The notes under the pieces: model-generated
What the model was told of the DNA's origin: nothing
Seen by the model: only the letters and a program-made list of their open reading frames with translations
Databases searched by the model: none
Position numbers and translations under genes: made by a program
Assembly (NCBI GenBank): GCA_008690995.1
Contig: VRMN01000019.1
Location: 62,001 to 126,000, forward strand
DNA from: Porphyridium purpureum
Lineage: Eukaryota
Length of the DNA stretch: 64,000 bases
Direction of reading: 5' to 3'
Shown here: piece after piece, positions 1 to 54,118 of the stretch
How positions within the stretch are numbered: position 1 is the stretch's first letter
Layout of the letters: each line of letters starts with the position of its first letter

Positions 1-649
1 GCCCTGCTGATACTTTGGGTCATGCTCAAGTTAGTCTGAGAAGTGCGGGCGCGACTGCTTCTATGGATTTGGCTCAAAGGTACAGTCTGGCTATGACGTG
101 CGTTCTGACAAAGTGTTGTGAGTATTTTCGACATTTTCGCTTCCAAAGACGAATTGCATTTGTCGCAAAAATCACGGGTTGCGTCCCGGAAGGAGTTCTT
201 CAGATTGCACGGAGACAAATCGGTACCACGTCCGCCAGCCGTCTAGCCACGGGCGTGCGCAAGCACGAGCACGGAGCGGTATGCTATTACCCTCAGGCGC
301 TCACCTTGTGCTTTGCAAAAGGTGTTTATCTCCACGCAATAAAAGTCTTATCTATCTCCTTGCCTCGTCCGACACTTTGACCTCCGAAGGCAAGTACGAC
401 GGCTATGCTATACAGGCGAGAATGCACTATTCAAACTGATCCTGTCGGGTAGACAAGATTATGACTGGAAAATCATGACACTAGAAGGGAATATGAGATC
501 GAGCGCAGCCAACAGCGTTTTCACCACCAAACGCCCAAGAAGACTGAGAGGGTCCAGTGCTACTAGTAAAGCACCTTTTACCATACGCCTATGTGTCAGA
601 GCCTCTAACTAAAACTCTACGCTACATCCCACAGAGCTGCCTGCTCGGT

Positions 650-908
650 CCGGCTTAAGTACCTTCTCCCGAGCCTCGGACTTCTGCTCGCGTGCGGGTT
701 TCGGATGGTGTTGGCGTTCGAACCCGGCACGTATGCGAAGTGCGGCCGTATCGGCTAATGGCCGCCCGGAGTGGTTTCGAAAACATACCTCCTTTCGCTG
801 TACCCCGAACCGATATTAAGTACAGCTTGGGGAGTGACAGGACGACCTGGTTTCTTCCACGTAACAGCATTTAAAAAAAAAAAAAAAACAAAAAAAAAAA
901 AAAAAAAA
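650..908 (+). mobile_element. Probable 3' end of a poly(A)-tailed non-LTR retroelement (LINE/SINE-like); 5' boundary unknown
   Basis: Templated A-tract 873-908 (one C at 889), preceded by stem-loops at 692-730, 742-765 and 798-826 and directly abutting a 5'-truncated Fanzor frame. No RT ORF or target-site duplication visible. Confidence 0.45.
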
Positions 909-1123
909 CCGGTTCGAAATTGGTGCTTGTCAATGAGGCCTATACCTCGAAAACGTGCAGCGCGTGTGGAACCGTAAACGCGAACCTGGGCGGCGCCAAG
1001 ACTTTTAAATGTCGCTCCAGCGCGTGCGGAGCGGTCATGGACCGCGACATCAGCGGCGCAAAGAACATTTTATTGCGCAATCACAAAGCGCTGGGGATTT
1101 CGGTCCCCAGCATTGGAGCCTGA
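905..1123 (+). pseudogene. 5'-truncated Fanzor2/TnpB-like RNA-guided endonuclease (C-terminal RuvC plus zinc finger)
   Basis: Frame reads (K)TGSKLVLVNEAYTSKTCSACGTVNANLGGAKTFKCRSSACGAVMDRDISGAKNILLRN: E-x-YTSK motif, CxxC...CxxxxC zinc ribbon and DRD-x-x-GAKNI RuvC-III motif typical of TnpB/Fanzor. Confidence 0.88.
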
Positions 1124-1213
1124 CCCTACTGGGCAAACCCGGTGCACAGTGTCTCGGGACACCGCCAAACTTGATGTTCGGATCAGGCGTCGGCTTCCGG
1201 CAAAATTGTTTAA
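1090..1213 (+). ncRNA. Candidate Fanzor omega-RNA scaffold and guide at the transposon right end
   Basis: Consecutive hairpins overlapping and following the stop codon: 1090-1111 (UUCG loop), 1128-1143, 1149-1162, 1170-1187. Possible pseudoknot GCCTGA 1118-1123 with TCAGGC 1183-1188. The position matches where TnpB/Fanzor omega-RNAs are encoded. Confidence 0.6.
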
Positions 1214-1371: not shown

Positions 1372-3750
1372 CTAGTTCTGGTCACCGCCGACCGAGTACC
1401 GCAGTAGACTGTATGTCATGGCAAGCGTCAGCGAGATGAGTGTGACTAGCGGACCGACCTTCAGCCATCTGATGAAGGAAATGGCGTGGCCCGAGCGGTT
1501 TGCAATACCGACAACGACCAGGTTGGCACTCGCACCGATGAGTGTCATGTTGCCGCCCAAGCACGCACCCAGCGCAAGTGACCAGATCAGTGGGTTGATG
1601 GGCAGCAGAAGTTCCGGGTCACGCGAGAGCTGCACGACCACGGGCACCATGGCGAGTGTGTAAGGAATGTTGTCCAGGATGCCCGAAATGATACCAGAAA
1701 CCCAGATAAAGATCACGATCGCCACGGTAAGCTGCTGGCTTTGATCGACGCTCTTGATCCAACCGGCGATCACGTCACCGATCCACGCGATAAGGCCCAT
1801 CTCTGCGAGCGACTCGATGGTGATGAACAAGACAATAAAGAAAAGCAGCAAGTCCCACTCGACCGACTCCATCGTGTGATGCAAGTCATGCGGTTCGCTC
1901 AGCAGCATCAGCCCCACGGCTCCTGCCAACGCAACCCACGGCGCATGCACGTGGTGCACGGGCTCTGTGAAGAACAGGATGATGACTGATGTAAAGACGA
2001 TGCCGCACTTGGCCAGCAGCACCTTCTTTCGGATGCGGTACTCCTTCTTCATCTCTTCGACGTCCAGAAAGTCGGCGTCGGCCGCAAACTCCTTTCGGTA
2101 CCACCAGCGCACGAAGAAAATGCACACCAGGAAGATCACAATCACGATCGGTGCCAGATTGACCAGGAAGTCCACAAAGCCGACGTACTCGGAGAGCGCA
2201 GTGCCAATGATGATGTTCGGCGGGTCTCCGATCATCGTCGCGGTTCCACCAATGTTGGAAAAGATCGCCTCTGAAATGAGGAATGGCACCGGGTCGATTT
2301 TCATGGCCGTGCAGATGTTGATGGTCACGGGCGCGATAAGAAGCACGGTTGTCACATTGTCCAAGAAGGCAGACAGAAACGCCGTGATCGTGCACAAAAT
2401 GTAGAACAGCCGTGTAGACTTGCCACCGCTCCACTGGTATGACAGCACGGCCATGTATTCGAAGATCCCCGTGGTGCTCAGGACGTGCACGATGATCATC
2501 ATGCCGAATAGGAGCACAATCACGCCAGAGTCAATGTGCGCCCACGCATCCACGAGACTGGGCGCCTTGTCGAAGATAACGAGGAAGAAGATGGCAATGA
2601 ACATGGCCATAAACGCAGAAAGCGTGCGATGCACCACGTCAGTCATGATGAGAATGAACAGAAAGATCAGGATGAGCCCGGCAATCACCACCTGGTGGCG
2701 GCCAATGGCCTGCGACTGGTGGGAGTGAATGATCACACCAATGGGCGTTGGCGAGTTTGTACGCACCAGCACCACAGGCATCTGCTGCTCCGGATTCGTA
2801 ATGGACGCCAGCTCGGACGTCTTGAATTCCACCAGCAGCGCAAAGTCCTCAAACTTTGACTCTTCGTACACGTCGTCGAGTGCGACAAAGTCTTGCTCTG
2901 GGTCGGCGCAGTTGTTCGCACAATATCCGGCTTGCGCCGACAGCGTCAAGTTTTGCGATTCGTCAACGGGCTCCTGCGCCCCCGCCACGCCAGAAAATTC
3001 GACGAAACTGAGTGATTTGTGCGTATCAAGCGGGTAGTAAAGGGGCTGCGCATCAGATACGCCGAACGTGTGCTTCCAGTCCGGATCGTGGTGCACGCCG
3101 GGTCCCAGGATGAAGATAGCCACCGCGATACCGACGCAGCATATGAATGTGATGGCCAGCATAATATAGTCGCGGCGACCAAACTCCTCGTCCAGCACAC
3201 CCTTGCCAAGCTCGGCCTCGAGCTCTGCTTCCACCTCGGCAATCTCTGCCTCGCGGTCCTCTCTACGCTTTAGGCGGTACATGGCAGTGTCCACACTCTT
3301 TCGACCGCTGATGATCGAGTCCTCCGAGTATGGCACCACGCTCCCGCTGGAGCGACGGTTCCGGAGCGTGGACGGCCGCGACACGCTGCTGTAGCGATGC
3401 CCGCTCGCGCTGGACGGCCGACTGGTCGCGCCAATGAGATTATCGGCGTCAGTGCCGCCATACTCGCCGGCGCCCTGCACATAGTCTGGCAGCACCTGCT
3501 GAATGGAGCGCCGGCCCGTGTGGTACTCTGCCACCTTGTTCCGGAGCTTGCGGCGCTCCGTCTCCTTCGGATCCTCGGGCGCCAACACACTCCCGAGCAG
3601 CGAGGGCCGCGACTGCGACGGCCGCGCAGACGACGGCCTGGACGCGTCGCCATGCTCGCCGAACCCTGCTGGCGCGGCATCATCAATCTCCACAATAATC
3701 TGCGGCGCGTCCTCGACATCGGCGTCTAGCCGGCTGGCCTTGTTCCCCAT
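1372..3750 (-). CDS. OCA2/P-protein-like ArsB/NhaD (CitMHS-type) multi-pass transporter
   Basis: Motifs LSAFLDNVTTVLLIAPV, SNIGGTATMIGDPPNIII, LDNIPYT and ALGACLGGNMTLIGASAN; many TM segments. First ATG (MGNKAS) at 3750. Confidence 0.9.
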   Translation of the reverse strand: MGNKASRLDADVEDAPQIIVEIDDAAPAGFGEHGDASRPSSARPSQSRPSLLGSVLAPEDPKETERRKLRNKVAEYHTGRRSIQQVLPDYVQGAGEYGGTDADNLIGATSRPSSASGHRYSSVSRPSTLRNRRSSGSVVPYSEDSIISGRKSVDTAMYRLKRREDREAEIAEVEAELEAELGKGVLDEEFGRRDYIMLAITFICCVGIAVAIFILGPGVHHDPDWKHTFGVSDAQPLYYPLDTHKSLSFVEFSGVAGAQEPVDESQNLTLSAQAGYCANNCADPEQDFVALDDVYEESKFEDFALLVEFKTSELASITNPEQQMPVVLVRTNSPTPIGVIIHSHQSQAIGRHQVVIAGLILIFLFILIMTDVVHRTLSAFMAMFIAIFFLVIFDKAPSLVDAWAHIDSGVIVLLFGMMIIVHVLSTTGIFEYMAVLSYQWSGGKSTRLFYILCTITAFLSAFLDNVTTVLLIAPVTINICTAMKIDPVPFLISEAIFSNIGGTATMIGDPPNIIIGTALSEYVGFVDFLVNLAPIVIVIFLVCIFFVRWWYRKEFAADADFLDVEEMKKEYRIRKKVLLAKCGIVFTSVIILFFTEPVHHVHAPWVALAGAVGLMLLSEPHDLHHTMESVEWDLLLFFIVLFITIESLAEMGLIAWIGDVIAGWIKSVDQSQQLTVAIVIFIWVSGIISGILDNIPYTLAMVPVVVQLSRDPELLLPINPLIWSLALGACLGGNMTLIGASANLVVVGIANRSGHAISFIRWLKVGPLVTLISLTLAMTYSLLRYSVGGDQN

Positions 3751-6732
3751 TCCACGCGCCTCGCGCGCGCGCACGCTCGTGCGCCTGCCTCACACCTACC
3801 CGCACCACCGCGGCGCCGCTACCCACGCCCTTCGCACCACCGCAACAGCTCTCCTCCCCCGACCGCACGCACGACGTGTCGCCGATACACCTCTCCACCA
3901 AGCCACCGAGAAACCAACCACCAGCCTTGCAGTCTGCTTGTGCCCAGCTCTCCTTACACCTTCCTCGCCGTCCGCTCCTCCCCAGAAGACCACCGCGCGC
4001 GCAACCACTCTACCGACGCCGGACAATAACCTCAACCGCGCACGTCGCCGCGCCTTATCCTGCTGCCACCACGCCGCCACGCCGCCGCTTCTCTCCCCGC
4101 CGCGCGTTCACTGCCACTGCTTCTACCCACCCACCGCACTCCAATTAACGCCCGGCCGGTCGCCGCTCCGCACATCACGTAACGCGCGCCGAAAATATCA
4201 TAAAACAGCGTTACTTGTATAGTAACTATGCGCGTGCGCGACTCGGCTGTACAAAACGGGCGGGTTGCAGCGCTTCGCATTCCTCTGCAATGCATAGCTA
4301 TCAATATTACTAAAAAGGCACATTTTAGTAGAGCGATGTAATTTGGGACGCGCTGGTGGAATGCGTGTGAGGGACAGGATGTACAGTGGGTACAGTGCGA
4401 CACTTAAAGATTTGCGAACGGCTGCGCGTGCAGCTGAGCGCGGACGTGGCGGGGTGTGGAGCGGCGCGGTCTGCGCTGCGTGCGGCGTTGACGGTGCGGC
4501 TGGCGAGCGTGCGCTGCCGCCTCCGGTCGGCGCGGCTCGCGCGTTGCTCAGCTGTCGCGGGTGGAACGCTTGGCAAAGGGAGAGAGAGAGATATATATAT
4601 ATTTGCAGAAATGCAAGTTTGGCAGGGAGCAGCGCAGAACAGCGAGCGAGGGCGTGGCATACGCGCGACGTGGAGAGATGAGCAACAAGTCTGGTCTGTG
4701 GAGTTGGATGAGCGCGGCGTGCGGAGAAGAATCGTGAGAGGGGCGGCGTTGTATCTCGCAGCCGGTTTCGGAGCAGTTGTGCGGCCAACGTCACAAGAGT
4801 TGGCACTGGCATAGCTCGCTGATAAGCACGTCTCCACCCGTACAGCATGGTTTTCTGGTATTCGGGTTGGTCGTTGTTTCGTATGAGCACATAGATGTGT
4901 CGTACTTCCTGCAAAAGACATGCTCTTCCTGGACGCGTGGAAAAGCACTAAGAAGAAAGAATGACGCGTCAGCTTGGGTACAGAAAGCTGGGCGATGTAA
5001 ACGAGGCGACATCGTCAAGACTAGATGCAGAGACAATGGCGCTATTGAGAGACGTGCCGGAACAGATGTCATTTCGCCTTGCTGCTTTACTTGCTTGCCT
5101 TGCTATGAAGTGGTTCTTAGTCGGACCCAACAGGGTTCGCTAAAGACGGCCGGCTCGCTTCGTCCGACAGTGCGCGACTTGCTCCGCACAGACGACTCTG
5201 GTAAAGCGGACCTTGAGCGCACGTCGGTATACCCAGCATGCCACAGTGTAGATGTTGACCTGGTCGAGATGAAGGAGTGAAGGGTCGTGTGATTGTTTTA
5301 AAAGAAAGATGGACGGGTGGAAATAGAAGGCGTGGAAAAGGAAGGACACTGTGTTTCTGTACGGAAGACTGCAGTGGAAAGGAGGAGCATTCGTTCAAGG
5401 CTCGTGAGCTGCACTATCAAATGAGCAGGACTTCGTGGAATGTCAATTAACGCATGATATCATTCCATGTGATCCGTCCAACGAGCTGAAGTACCCTTTC
5501 CTTTCGACGCTATTGATGAAGCACGGAAAAAGTATATCGTTTTCCATTTCCGGAGGCTACGGACTGATGAGTTCCAAGCCGCGATACTTCCTCCACGCGC
5601 ACTGCTACACCGACTCTCCATTACGTTGCCTTCCGTCCACAGCACATTGCGCGCTTGAATCACCTCGCCTGTGACCGAAGACTACCGCAAAATCACTCGA
5701 ACGACAAACAGTGGCAATCCCCGCAGAGCCACGTCGAAGTATTTTGGCGTCTGAACGACTGTCCCGACGCGGCAACCATTGCTGTTTCCATTTTGACAAA
5801 GCGAAACTGTCTTTTCGACAACCGCTCTGCCGCATCATCAGCCACTGGATTGCATGGCACTAGCCAACGGCTATCCAGCATTTGCTGCCACCAGGCAGTG
5901 ACTGACCATACGAACCAAACCACACGCCTGGAGTCTTTCCTCCTTCCTGCTCACCTCCAGACCACTCGGCCCCGCAGACCACTCGGCACGCCTCATTCCT
6001 TTGTCATCCCACACCCATTCCGAGCAATGTGCATTCCAATGCAATGCGCATTCCGCGTCCTCTCACTGTACCGCCACCCTGTCTGGCAATGCTGCAGTGC
6101 AACGACATCTCCAACCCCTCGCGCTCGATCGCCGCGTCGTTTCCATACTAAAACGGTGCCGTTTTATGATTTACGGGCTCTTGGAATGGCGGAGCGAATG
6201 CGGTTCAACTGCGGACCGGTTTATCGGTTCAATTGCCAGTGGGAGGTGGCGGGCGGTGGCAGTTGAGCGAGGTCTTGATGTGGCATGTGGCGCGGCGCTG
6301 CGGTGCGGAGTGTCGCATGCGGCCATCATGTGCTACCGCTCACGCGCGCGTTCACGCGCCCGCGCACAATTGCGCCATGGCGTCTCAATGGCGTGTTTCG
6401 TGCTGCGCGCGTATGGGCACGTGAGGGCAGCGCTGGTTGCCAATGTGAAGACGGTCGCTATATCTGCGGGCAGTAGCCGTGCGATGGGTACAAGGAAGCG
6501 CGACCTGCGAATGCCGTCGTCGTGAGCTTATGAATATTGCGGCTCGTCGATTGAGGGTCAGAAAGCGTCTGTGTGCCCGTGCCTGCGCATTGTCCACGCG
6601 TGAGTGTAGAGCTAGAGAGCGACTGCGCGTTGGACAAGATCGACCAGGAGCCGGGCGAGTTCGTCGCTCCGAAGAGGTGGCATACAGCTGGAGCGCACCA
6701 GATTTGCAAGGAAGTAAGGTACTACAATTGCG

Positions 6733-8325
6733 ATGGCGCGACATGCAGCTTTAGCCCAAAGCGTGCACGCCTTGTGGATGGCGGCCGCGGCGGTGATTAT
6801 TGCAAGCTTGCACACTTCTCCAGTTCATGGCGCGCCGATTTCTAGCAAGGACGCCGCGCCCACCCCACAACAGCTGGGAAACATGATCATGACGGCAATT
6901 AATTTGGGCGGCGGCACTGTCGGTGGCTACATGGCGGAGCCAAAAGACCTGTACAAGGCAGATACTGTGCCGTACCTGCGTAAATTCTCGGTGTCCGGCG
7001 AAAAGGCCGAATTGATCTCACCTCCAGAGCTGCGCGACGTGCTGCGCAACCAAATGTCGTCGAAGAGCAACGAGGGGCTGTCGCTGCGCATCCCGGTAGA
7101 GGCCGGCGTGTACACCGTGCACCTTGTGTTTGCTGAACTGTGGGATGGCGCCTTTACGCCAGGCGCTCGCGTGTTCGATATCCGTGTCGGTACGTACATG
7201 TGCGGCGAACAGCTGGTGGCGAAGGACTTTGACGTGTACAGCGCTGCAGGCAACCGTGGTTACACCGGGGTGGTGCAGACCATCGAGAAGGTTGCGACGC
7301 GTGGCGGCATCAACATCCGGCTCAAGCCGAAGAAGCAGAACCCGATTCTGAACGCTGTGGTCGTAGAAGGTGTCAAGATGGACACAGCAGAAATCAACAT
7401 GGTTGGCTGTGCGGGCTACGGATCAGTGCTGCCAGAAGGAGCGCCAACTGCAACCACGGGTCGTGCGGCAGCAGACGATGCCAGCGCAGAGTATGCGGTG
7501 ATGCAAAAGCTGCGCGAGCAGGCACCCAAACACGCGCTGGCCATCAACGTAGGGAGCGCCGTAGCTGTGGGTCCGTTTGAGAGCGATCACGACAAGTGGT
7601 GGAACACACCGGCAAAGCTCGAAAATGTGGCGCTGCGCCGCTCGTTCTCGGTAGATGAGGCCAAGCTGGCACCTGGCCAGGAGCACGGAGCGGCTCTACG
7701 GACGCAGATTGCGTCAAATGGTGGCGCAAGCTTAGACATGCGCCTGCCTGTGGCACCAGGTGTGTACAAGGTGCACATGCTATTTGCTGAGCTGTGGGAC
7801 GGCGCGTTCACGCCGGGCATGCGCGTCTTTGACATTCGTGTCAACACAGATTCCTGCGGGGAGAAGCTTGTCAAGGCTGGCATGGACGTCTTTAGCGAAG
7901 CTGGACAGAAAGGATACACGGGTGTGGTCGAAACTGTGCAAGACGTGACCGCACGCGAGTATATCGACCTAAAGCTGGTGCCCAAGAAGCAAAACGCAGT
8001 GCTCAATGCGGTGTGGGTCGAGGGTGTCGAGCTCTCAGTCGATGAGGTCAAGGCCTTGGGTTGCTCGCTCGTGCCGAGTATGGTAGAGCGAAAGGACGCG
8101 AAGCTTCCTCAGTTTGGTATCGCAGCAATACGAGCTCCTTCTGTCGCAGGTGCAGCAGCACCGCCTTCTTTGGCCGGACGCGGCAAGACGGCGGAAGAAG
8201 CTACGGCGCAGATGCAGGCGACAAGGACTATCAAGCAGACAGAATCTGACAGCCTTGATGGATCAAGTGCAAGTGTTGGTCTAATACCTGAAGGGCCGAT
8301 CTTTCTGGATATGACAGTTGTGTAG
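6733..8325 (+). CDS. Secreted protein with two tandem malectin-like carbohydrate-binding domains
   Basis: Hydrophobic N-terminus and two near-identical repeats (GVYTVHLVFAELWDGAFTPGARVFDIRV / GVYKVHMLFAELWDGAFTPGMRVFDIRV) with the malectin FAE...RVFDI signature. Start could be ATG 6778. Confidence 0.85.
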   Translation: MARHAALAQSVHALWMAAAAVIIASLHTSPVHGAPISSKDAAPTPQQLGNMIMTAINLGGGTVGGYMAEPKDLYKADTVPYLRKFSVSGEKAELISPPELRDVLRNQMSSKSNEGLSLRIPVEAGVYTVHLVFAELWDGAFTPGARVFDIRVGTYMCGEQLVAKDFDVYSAAGNRGYTGVVQTIEKVATRGGINIRLKPKKQNPILNAVVVEGVKMDTAEINMVGCAGYGSVLPEGAPTATTGRAAADDASAEYAVMQKLREQAPKHALAINVGSAVAVGPFESDHDKWWNTPAKLENVALRRSFSVDEAKLAPGQEHGAALRTQIASNGGASLDMRLPVAPGVYKVHMLFAELWDGAFTPGMRVFDIRVNTDSCGEKLVKAGMDVFSEAGQKGYTGVVETVQDVTAREYIDLKLVPKKQNAVLNAVWVEGVELSVDEVKALGCSLVPSMVERKDAKLPQFGIAAIRAPSVAGAAAPPSLAGRGKTAEEATAQMQATRTIKQTESDSLDGSSASVGLIPEGPIFLDMTVV

Positions 8326-27721: not shown

Positions 27722-29315
27722 GCAACGCGCTCGGCGCCAAGTATATGCGGCGCTGTAGAGGACAGACTTTGTCGAGCTACGCTACACAATCAACGCCAAC
27801 GCCGGATGTCAAGCGGCGAATGCACCACATACGAACTCGCGCTGCGTCTGTGGCGCTCTACAGGCACGTGCTGGCAGAACGATGCAAAGATTATGGCACA
27901 TAACGCGTCACAAATCAGCATGCCACACCGCACCAGAGCGTGTTCGCCATCTTCAAGCGGTGCGACAAGATGGAGCCACCTCTTCCCATCCTATGCTCTT
28001 GTCAGAGCATGTGGAAGCGTAAACCTTTCCATGACCGAAGCCTTCTGCGTTTTTTTGCTTTTAACAAGGAGTGCGCACTGCATCCGCAAAGAGATTGATC
28101 TAATAAAGCGTTGCGCGCCATAAAATACATTTTTTGGGGGGAGAATGCAACGTATTCACGCGGCACTTTGAGAAATGCCACGAACGTCCGAGTGCTTCGC
28201 GCGAATCTCCCTTGTCGCGGCTCGTTTGCATCGAGCAAACTCGCGAGGGCAAGAAAGGTATTGATTTCAATGGGTTCACGGGTCGGTTCCACGAAGAAAC
28301 GAAGGAAAAGTTGGAAAGGAGGCTCCGAAATTAGTTGGTGGTTCTTTTGTCAGTATAAGTGGCCTGAATTAACCAAGAAATCCGTCGTCACGAGCGTGTT
28401 TTTCCTCCTTCCGTATTCTCTGTCAACCAGAGTCAAAACTGCCGGACAGGAACTTTCCGTCGCTCAACGAGCGGTCGCGTGCGGTTGGTGTTCGCACACC
28501 GCTGACTGGGACGTCGTTGCGCGACGAGAAGAATCACGGAAAATCTACAGACACTTACAGGTATCTTGCAAATGTCTCGGTGGGACAGCGTATAAATAGG
28601 TGCGTCGACACCTACGAGGCAAGGCAGGCATGCGAAGAATGGTCGCTATATTTGTCAACATACAGGTGTCTTACATTCGACCAATTGGGGTGAGGGTACC
28701 TGAGGCAACGTCGTCGTTGACGTCGACATAGACGAAGAAGAACTAAACGAGGAACAAAAAGAGTGTGACAAAACACGCAGGTTTACTGAAGGCCTTTGAG
28801 GCAACGTTCTGCAGTTTCTTCGTCTTGCGACGGTTAATGACTACCCAGAGTGGTTTCGAAACAGTGCCTCCACTCGCTGTACCACCTTAAATCTGTAACG
28901 TTGGTGAGTATAGCTTGGGGCGGAACAGGACGATCTCGTTTCTGTCACGGATGCAAACACGAAAAAAGGAGCATCAGAGGATTGTCTTTGTCAATCTTAA
29001 TCAAATTCTGAGCAAAATTTTAGTGAATACTGTAACTCATCCAGCACTGCACATCCTTCCATGCTTTGACCCGTTCAGTCATGTGAAACGTTTACGCCGT
29101 GACATACGACTATTCCCGATCAAGTAACAATCAATCGCAAGAATTCGCGCCGAGCCGCCACCTCTCTCCCCGCTATCCACGCTGAAAGCATGCTCTGCTA
29201 TGGCTCTTTTCATAGCCGAACCAAAGAATCACACAATTACTTTGCAGGCTACCTTTTCAACCAAGAATCGTCAAAGCATAAATATGCTGTTCCATCGAAC
29301 GGGTCCCCATGTCAA

Positions 29316-52225: not shown

Positions 52226-52891
52226 TTTGTTTCTCCTGCCGGTCGGAGCGAGCACGGGCTGTACAAACAATGACGGTCTTTCGCTTGGGTGCAGAGAAAA
52301 GTTAGCCTGGCTCTAAATCTTTTGCGGTGCGTAGTATCGGTGCTATGATCTGGAGACAATGCCGGTGCATTGATCCTGCTAGATTCCATCTCGATAGCGC
52401 AGCCCGCGGAGACTCCGCCGGCAAACATGAATCATGGAAGAAGGTAAAGTGCTCTGAGAGAACATCTGCATGCGTAAAAATTGACAAGTTGACTGCGTGT
52501 GCTCGTGATATCGACCTGACATATGCTGATATGGCATTGCGACACTATTCTAGGTGCGCGCTGCACGGAATAATTGAGGAATGCGATCACTTTATTTCAT
52601 ACGAAGGCAGCAAGCCCACCCTATTTGCTTTCAACTTTGCACCGTCAAGATTGGTGCAGGTTCAAGACGAGGCTGTTGTAAGCTGTCTGCAGTCTTGAGC
52701 AAAGCGTAATGCTCTAGTGCTTTCAGCAGAGCGGAGGAGTTTAGTAGGTAAATTAAGCATTAGATGATAATTTTGAGAGCCTGCGCGGCATGAAAAAAAG
52801 TCTGTCAAGATACGTCCAGATGCCCATTCTTACGTTCTGCACCGTCTTCTTCTTCTTCTTCTCGCATATCATGACGCGGCAGACCTCGGAA

Positions 52892-53005
52892 ACAGGCACA
52901 GGCACAGGCACAGGCATAGGCATAGGCATAGGCATAGGCATAGGCATAGGCATAGGCATAGGCATAGGCATAGGCATAGGCATAGGCATAGGCATAGGCA
53001 CAGGC
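52892..53005. repeat. Compound hexanucleotide microsatellite (ACAGGC)4(ATAGGC)14(ACAGGC)1
   Basis: Read directly: 114 bp, 19 units. Confidence 0.95.
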
Positions 53006-54118
53006 TCATCTGACTCACTTGTACCAACCAACCATGACGCTCTACCAGATACCAGCCTGCTCCGCAAACAACATTATCCCAGCCAGCGTTCTTCGCGCTA
53101 CGCATCCACGACATCAAAGAAGCTGAGAGCGGGACAACACTCACAATCCACGTGCAAGTGTACTGACGCGCAGCGCGCATTACGCAGGGCTGCCAACAGA
53201 CCCGGCCACACACCAACCAACACACCACAGCCGCAGCCGCAGCCGCGCTGCGCTGCGTGCTTCCTGCGCGTCTGCCAATACGGAGCAGCCGCCACCATCC
53301 CAATCGGTTTACCGGCTACAACCACGCGTCACTGTACACTATCCGATCTACTGTACACTATCTCGCACAGCGTCTATGTAAACGCCCCGAATTCAGAAGC
53401 AGCCCGGTGCGCATCGCAATCGGCGCAAAGTACAGTTATTGATTACTAGTAAAATAACACGGTGTGATAGTGTACAGTAAGTTAACCGATAGCGTTCGAT
53501 GGTGGGTCGCGTGCGCGTGTGCGCGCATGCGGCGACAAGACGCGCTGACGACACGCGGACGCGCGACGTGTGCGGTCGCTGGCGTGGCCGTGTGGTCCGT
53601 TCTGTGGCCGATCGATCGCTCGGTTGGTCGTTCAAGCTGGCTGCCTGAGCCGGCTGGCTGGGTCGGTCGGTCGGTCGGTCGGTTGACTAAACGCTGCCGC
53701 CGCTTCGATACGCCTCGTGGCTTTGCTGTGCTCTGGATCGTCCCGATCGCAAAGGTTTATGCGTGGATAAGAGGACTGGATTCGCGTTTAAGGCCGGGCG
53801 CTGCTTGGAGTGCTCTGTATCGAGAAGCACGGCAAGCGGTGCGTGCGATAGCTTGTGCAGTCACGCGCGGCACTTTCGTGTCAGATCCAGCTGCGTGAAA
53901 CGCGCTGTAGATGCGTTGCAAAGGAAAGCATGGTGAACGAGGCGCAGAACATCCTGTCTAGTCTGACATTGACGTGCTCCGCATCGCATCGAACGACGTC
54001 GCGGGAATGAAAAGGGATATCGCGTGTGCTCTGATCGAGAGAAGCAAAATAGAGCAACTTGCGAAAGGAAAACGCGGCCAAACGGCGGCAGCGCCAGAGA
54101 AAAGTCGGGTTTCTTAGG

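Follow-up and report, generated by a model that had tools for sequence, protein, structure and literature searches.

Positions 1090-1189 of the window, the 64-kb stretch of Porphyridium purpureum DNA analysed here, very probably constitute an omega-RNA (reRNA) scaffold, forming the right end of an IS607-type Fanzor2 copy that is likely non-functional, terminates in TCAGGCG at 1189 and has a predicted pseudoknot between 1118-1123 and 1183-1188. Fanzor2 omega-RNAs with a loop-to-end pseudoknot are already known, and this scaffold adds a member to that family. The locus is likely to be a decaying remnant of a Fanzor2 guide-RNA scaffold, a fossil that points to a Fanzor2 family in a Porphyridiales alga. 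A preliminary description of the sequence had proposed a Fanzor omega-RNA overlapping the 3' end of the ORF, with a pseudoknot, a guide derived from the flank and an end near 1190. This outline is borne out by other copies of the element, by relatives and by covariation, and a sequence check found all the hairpin strings and pairings then listed at their coordinates. The features of the locus are collected in Table 1.

Table 1. Features of the Fanzor2 remnant and its surroundings, in window coordinates. Pair probabilities are from a nested model, which admits no pseudoknots.
Feature	Position	Strand	Remarks
Multicopy repeat, unrelated to Fanzor	600..873	+	Occupies the expected RuvC coding region; 5' limit left of 600
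Poly(A) tract	874..908	+	Abuts the Fanzor fragment; from sequence
Fanzor2 C-terminal ORF fragment	908..1123	+	TSKTC..C4 zinc finger..DRD; stop TGA 1121-1123
Hairpin P1	1090..1111	+	5' hairpin of the scaffold, inside the last codons; pair probability 1.0
Pseudoknot hairpin	1115..1126	+	3-bp stem 1115-1117/1124-1126, loop GCCTGA 1118-1123
Hairpin P2	1128..1143	+	Pair probability 0.97; sister copies GCCGGT-GAAA-ACCGGC and TCCGGT-TAAA-ACCGGG, altered on both sides (loose ends)
Hairpin P3	1148..1163	+	1149-1162 in the window copy (pair probability 0.67); 1148-1163 pairs where 1148 is G; from folding
Last hairpin P4	1165..1181	+	Broken by A1167 in the window copy
3' pseudoknot strand and right end	1183..1189	+	TCAGGC plus G; terminal CG 1188-1189
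Predicted guide	1190..1209	+	Single-copy flanking host DNA, first bases TCGGCTTCC; the target is predicted to consist of CCG and then the guide sequence

The ORF fragment corresponds to the zinc-finger end of TnpB/Fanzor proteins (PF07282, E 8e-16) and is 71-76% identical to its best homologues, metagenomic DPG-type Fanzor2-like proteins. Only the last 71 codons are left in the window, and no cognate nuclease with an intact RuvC triad is found in the same element; this lowers the case for a functional system, not the assignment of the scaffold to the Fanzor2/IS607 TnpB omega-RNA family. Ten longer homologues gave no tblastn match left of 911, and the six frames of 1-874 gave no Pfam match. The repeat found there is represented by several contigs at 83-98% identity, and a second partial copy of 600-908 lies within the window at 28831-28949 (71% identical). 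Together with the poly(A) tract, which is spanned by no contig among those listed, it is likely to represent the 3' end of a retroposon insertion (LINE/SINE-type) that interrupted the Fanzor ORF. TnpA is also absent from the window remnant, and was detected (PF00239) in an overlapping arrangement in all four relatives tested (L002, L007, L008 and L016).

The window copy itself looks dead. At 1117, 1148 and 1167 it carries A where 97-99% of sense RNA reads have G, and each A breaks a G-C pair. G1117, the loss of which breaks the inner pair of its stem, is found in 11/11 relatives and in 229/236 and 794/809 sense reads of the two RNA runs; the corresponding counts are 228/234 and 821/838 for G1148, and 224/226 and 829/833 for G1167. 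The nested folding energy is -35.1 kcal/mol with the window letters against -55.0 with those of the sister copy, and the pair probability of P4 is 0.13 with the former and 0.96 with the latter, in which G1167 makes the hairpin perfect. Furthermore, Ser stands in place of the conserved Asn after DRDI in the window copy, position 1053 being A in all 223 sense reads of run X21.

A sister copy, approximately 94% identical, keeps DRDIN and all stems and is transcribed in the sense direction at roughly 10-20 times the depth of the 3' end of the neighbouring gene. Sense RNA-seq depth over 1000-1181 is 170-254 in X21 and 607-869 in X22, mostly at 90-95% identity, with approximately 20-25% of each run read and the strand checked against the neighbouring minus-strand gene. 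Reads at least 99% identical to the window number 3 of 708 and 10 of 1689, and depth over its own flank (1196-1250) is 0-2; these figures speak only weakly against the window copy being expressed, because libraries of the mRNA type miss a 120-nt RNA and the RNA runs, whose flank departs from that of the window at 1287, 1298 and 1305, may come from another strain. Reads of the sister copy continue into a flank starting GAATCTCGATC, for a median of 55 bases past the end, and hence represent a long transcript rather than processed omega-RNA. This copy is the best candidate for a live element.

More degenerate copies, with loop changes at 1119-1120 and diverged ORF ends, are read antisense in X21 and X22 over window positions 1085-1127 and 1140-1191, and probably sit inside host transcripts. 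The summed contig depth is greater over the 5' part of the RNA than over the ORF. In X2 a depth of about 2375 compares with 30.8 for one variant, a ratio from which no copy number was drawn, as the long contigs of this run themselves vary between 30 and 350.

The most durable alternative is that the locus is a working cassette which has lost its ORF but is still transcribed, its RNA being loaded into a Fanzor2 from another site in the genome, as at the 'ghost' loci of SpuFz1, whose omega-RNAs are described as functional (PMC10432273). P1, P2 and all six pseudoknot pairs are intact, the insertion is common to runs with organism labels A-D, and one sister copy is strongly transcribed. This is nevertheless improbable: the three stem-breaking G-to-A differences together amount to approximately 20 kcal/mol, window-identical reads and reads across the flank are as scarce as described above, and the element's own upstream sequence has been replaced within the window. 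As TnpB is reported to trim its own mRNA into omega-RNA (PMC10278001), a copy lacking the upstream part could not do so in cis. The supply of guide RNA in trans from this locus, suggested in the preliminary description, is likewise unlikely and finds no support in the stem-breaking differences or in the 0-2 reads crossing its flank in these mRNA-type libraries.

The point at which copies part company indicates that the element ends at G1189, with CG as its terminal dinucleotide. In the DNA-type runs, the match between the window and contigs of other copies breaks off after 1189 or 1191, whereupon depth falls to that of one copy; the two RNA runs contain 212 and 731 reads that depart after 1189, and 93 and 65 that do so after 1191. 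Such loose ends at 1189/1191 occur in X1, X2, X7, X11, X21 and X22, and none among those listed lies at 1192-1193 or beyond. We read the departure of some copies at 1191 as chance extension. Related elements split directly after AGGCG (L001/L003, L001/L004 and L051/L058), and the NlovFz2 scaffold given in supplement 4 of PMC10432273 ends in AAAGGCG and contains a GGG-TCCTTT-CCC hairpin. Six of the 10 best GTDB loci could be anchored, none of them with a CG-type end. The insertion junction is spanned by window-identical contigs in X1, X2 and X7 and by diverged orthologues in X9 and X11; no empty site is found among the listed contigs. A contig break at 1190 in X1 was considered as an empty allele and rejected, being a 30-base overlap of two window-identical contigs (1087-1219, and 1190 onward).

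The left junctions of relatives read CCG at six loci, identified by pairwise divergence in L008/L009 and L051/L058 and by contig start in L002 and L007. This matches the TAM measured for NlovFz2, CCG (PMC10432273), and the two observations together suggest a crossover at CG and a TAM of CCG. Relatives thus have CCG on the left and CG on the right, and the window copy has CG on the right, its left end being outside view. No target consisting of CCG plus the predicted guide occurs in the 64-kb window, where the best seed is 5 nt.

By contrast, the preliminary description had placed the right end at GG 1192-1193, with TTGG:CCAA as the pseudoknot and a guide starting at 1194. The strings exist, GG is the classical crossover dinucleotide of IS607 elements (PMC10711439), the match to some copies extends to 1191, and CC opens the last hairpin in several relatives. 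This model is nonetheless already largely refuted and is given hardly any weight. The RNA reads mostly leave at 1189, no listed loose end lies at 1192 or beyond, and the relatives and NlovFz2 end in AGGCG, so that the GG belongs to the flank and the guide as first proposed lacks its first four bases. TTGG:CCAA has a probability of 0.0, is absent from several relatives (L007, L008, L016 and L051 lack the CC), and competes with both the conserved pseudoknot hairpin and P4, the latter occupying C1165-C1166; it is incompatible with the short stem 1115-1117/1124-1126 because both use G1115-G1116.

That stem, which closes the GCCTGA loop, had been missed, and the pairing of GCCTGA with TCAGGC, previously set aside as an alternative to the last hairpin, emerges as the supported pseudoknot, with two of its six pairs covarying. 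Even in the nested model, the pair 1120-1186 within it has a probability of 1.0. Loop and end change together between elements: the window has GCCTGA..TCAGGC-G, L001-L004, L006, L007, L016 and L127 have GCCTAC..GTAGGC-G, L008 has GCCTAG..CTAGGC-G, and L051 and L058 have GCCTGT..ACAGGC-G. In a 12-row alignment of the window and 11 relatives, two pairs vary on both sides (AU/GC and CG/UA/AU/GC) and AGGCG is invariant in 12/12 sequences. The score for covariation is 0.253, the shuffles giving 0.090 and 0/500 of them reaching it, in a set of related sequences with variation at these two pairs only. Registers slid as controls pair at just 36-58%, against 100% for the pseudoknot, a figure that is partly a product of construction, the relatives having been chosen for carrying the complement (11/174 unique non-window loci).

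Support independent of this choice comes from three sources: the pairing sits exactly at the mapped end; the six relatives nearest in protein sequence whose 3' end is available (L001-L004, L006 and L007) all carry GCCTAC..GTAGGC-G; and prokaryote-type IS607 loci follow the same rule. Of these loci (L012-L100), 24/45 have a loop-to-end complement with GG or AG behind it, the null having a mean of 1.8 and a maximum of 6. The architecture agrees with that published, in which an apical loop pairs with the last scaffold bases beside the guide, a fixed flanking base lies inside the scaffold and the pairing is needed for ISXfa1 activity (PMC10711439); a pseudoknot with the last scaffold bases was also seen in ApmFz2 by cryo-EM (PMC11832414). 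In the prokaryote-type loci the complement before GG/AG is of five bases and occurs in many covarying versions, which makes it usable for calling right ends. The stop codon at 1121-1123 falls within the pseudoknot loop, where relatives read through as Ala-Tyr-Pro, with a matching change at the element end.

Folding statistics contribute less. The fold of 1085-1200 (-49.0 kcal/mol, z -2.33) is equalled by 3/200 shuffles, and the reverse strand gives a comparable fold (z -2.92), so that folding alone cannot fix the strand and is weak evidence; among 295 GC-matched windows of 100 nt from the 64 kb, the fold of 1090-1189 is equalled in three, which may overlap the site itself. An Rfam search returned nothing relevant (two weak matches), and blastn, a profile and a motif scan (1/1 matches being the locus itself) found no second omega-RNA copy in the 64-kb window. 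Changes that preserve pairing are seen in individual stems: sister copies turn G-C into G-U at 1106 and 1108 in P1, which is altered on both sides in L002, and L008 has A-U for G-C in the stem of the pseudoknot hairpin. A last hairpin at 1170-1187, as first described, has a pair probability of 0.0, also with the sister-copy letters, and P4 is the real one; a terminal hairpin before the end motif folds in relatives as well. These have a comparable run of stems between loop and end, that of the window family being the shortest (72 nt versus 101-136 nt). At about 100 nt the scaffold approximates the 101 nt of MmeFz2 (hand count), and is compact without being a record. The traits of Fanzor1 omega-RNAs (no pseudoknot; TIR/TSD in the scaffold) are not seen, the pseudoknot being supported and the nearest proteins being of the TnpA-linked Fanzor2 type. 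That the hairpins have no role as RNA, and are either DNA structures of a recombinase-binding end or folds that GC-rich sequence yields by chance, would suit the equally stable reverse strand and modest z-scores but is barely credible against the G-U-preserving changes and GNRA/UUCG loops on the plus strand, the long-range covariation with the element end and the reported action of IS607 TnpA on double-stranded DNA (PMC10711439).

By analogy with work on TnpB and Fanzor, the transcript of an intact copy of this multicopy element would run through the end of the ORF into the flank and be trimmed to a scaffold of approximately 100 nt plus a guide of 15-20 nt. The scaffold would fold in the order P1, pseudoknot hairpin, P2, P3 and P4, and the loop would clamp the last bases so that the guide begins directly after CG. 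In the resulting RNP, Fanzor2 would be predicted to cut empty sites composed of CCG and the guide sequence, repair from the filled allele retaining the element, while transposition would be the work of the serine recombinase TnpA, with CG as the crossover site.

Among known systems, NlovFz2 of Naegleria lovaniensis (PMC10432273) shares the AGGCG scaffold end, a TAM identical to the left junctions of the relatives and, on our reading of the supplement sequence, a GGG-loop-CCC hairpin with its loop complementary to the end. It differs in scaffold length (143 against about 100 nt) and in the distance from loop to end (99 against 72 nt, counted by hand); unlike the window copy it is intact and active, and no clear transposase is described at its loci. 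A Naegleria Fanzor is 56% identical to the window fragment over 55 residues and lies on a different branch of the tree, with L008, L016, L051 and L058 (95/86), the fragment grouping with L001, L002 and L127 (97/96). CG-ended elements are not resolved as one clade (72/37), the window row filling only 21% of columns. ApmFz2, from a mimivirus IS607 element with TnpA, is alike in its pseudoknot with the last scaffold bases and differs in its GGG TAM and a scaffold of more than 200 nt, largely downstream of the ORF (PMC11832414, PMC10530073). The bacterial ISXfa1 TnpB reRNA has the loop-to-end pseudoknot and retains the crossover dinucleotide in the scaffold, which is GG with a TAM of GGG and a length of approximately 150 nt (PMC10711439). 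Also close are the metagenomic IS607-Fanzor2 elements L001-L004, L006, L007 and L127, of the same protein clade and with the same layout of P1, pseudoknot hairpin and P2-P4 and the same AGGCG end; their loop is GCCTAC, read through as Ala-Tyr, in place of the GCCTGA stop of the window, and lies 101-127 rather than 72 nt from the end.

One of these, L127:1529-3504, is a TnpA plus Fanzor2 element on a contig labelled GVMAG, which we take to denote a giant-virus bin; the label is in line with viral carriage of this Fanzor2 clade. Scans of viral contigs with DNA patterns gave three matches lacking a Fanzor ORF (L123-L125), which were dropped as chance, and the window-type pattern gave 0 matches.

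For red algae, one Fanzor1 family is listed in Cyanidioschyzon (PMC3627910). Rhodophyta are named among Fanzor hosts, no species being given in the text available, in PMC10530073, the accessible supplements of which contain 0 matches to Porphyridium; Table S5 of PMC10711439 includes two Porphyridium rows labelled Fanzor. A literature search found no Fanzor2 reported for Porphyridiales, with figures, accession-only tables and subscription papers being places that may already contain the family or the CG rule. The two Porphyridium entries are, by their look, presumably zinc-finger proteins of the TFIIH p44 and Pex2 types.

It is conceivable, albeit rather doubtful, that in Porphyridiales an IS607-Fanzor2 family with CG ends and a CCG TAM is still active and has the most compact omega-RNA of its clade. 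In this scenario a compensatory double change in the pseudoknot, from TAC to TGA in the loop and from GTA to TCA at the end, would have turned the loop into the stop codon and allowed the stems downstream to become shorter. Were this so, a live RNA-guided nuclease native to a red alga would be represented by the strongly transcribed sister copy, and the CCG TAM of NlovFz2 could be understood as the place where IS607 crossover occurs at CG. An intact copy, if one exists, would be a candidate compact editor of red-algal origin, for which the locus supplies a testable design: scaffold to G1189, TAM CCG and a compact fold. More generally, the ends of IS607/Fanzor2 elements can be read from sequence by a simple rule, the loop complement plus the terminal dinucleotide.

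Elsewhere, the window encodes a Bud32-like kinase whose two best non-self matches, at 42-44% identity, bear the truncated names 'Porphyri' and 'Timsp', in keeping with a Porphyridiales host. It also encodes an 800-aa CitMHS/ArsB-type transporter (1372-3774, minus strand) and a protein of 530 aa in which two malectin domains are recognised (6733-8325, plus strand), and contains a tandem array of an AGGCAT/AGGCAC hexamer at 52870-53019.
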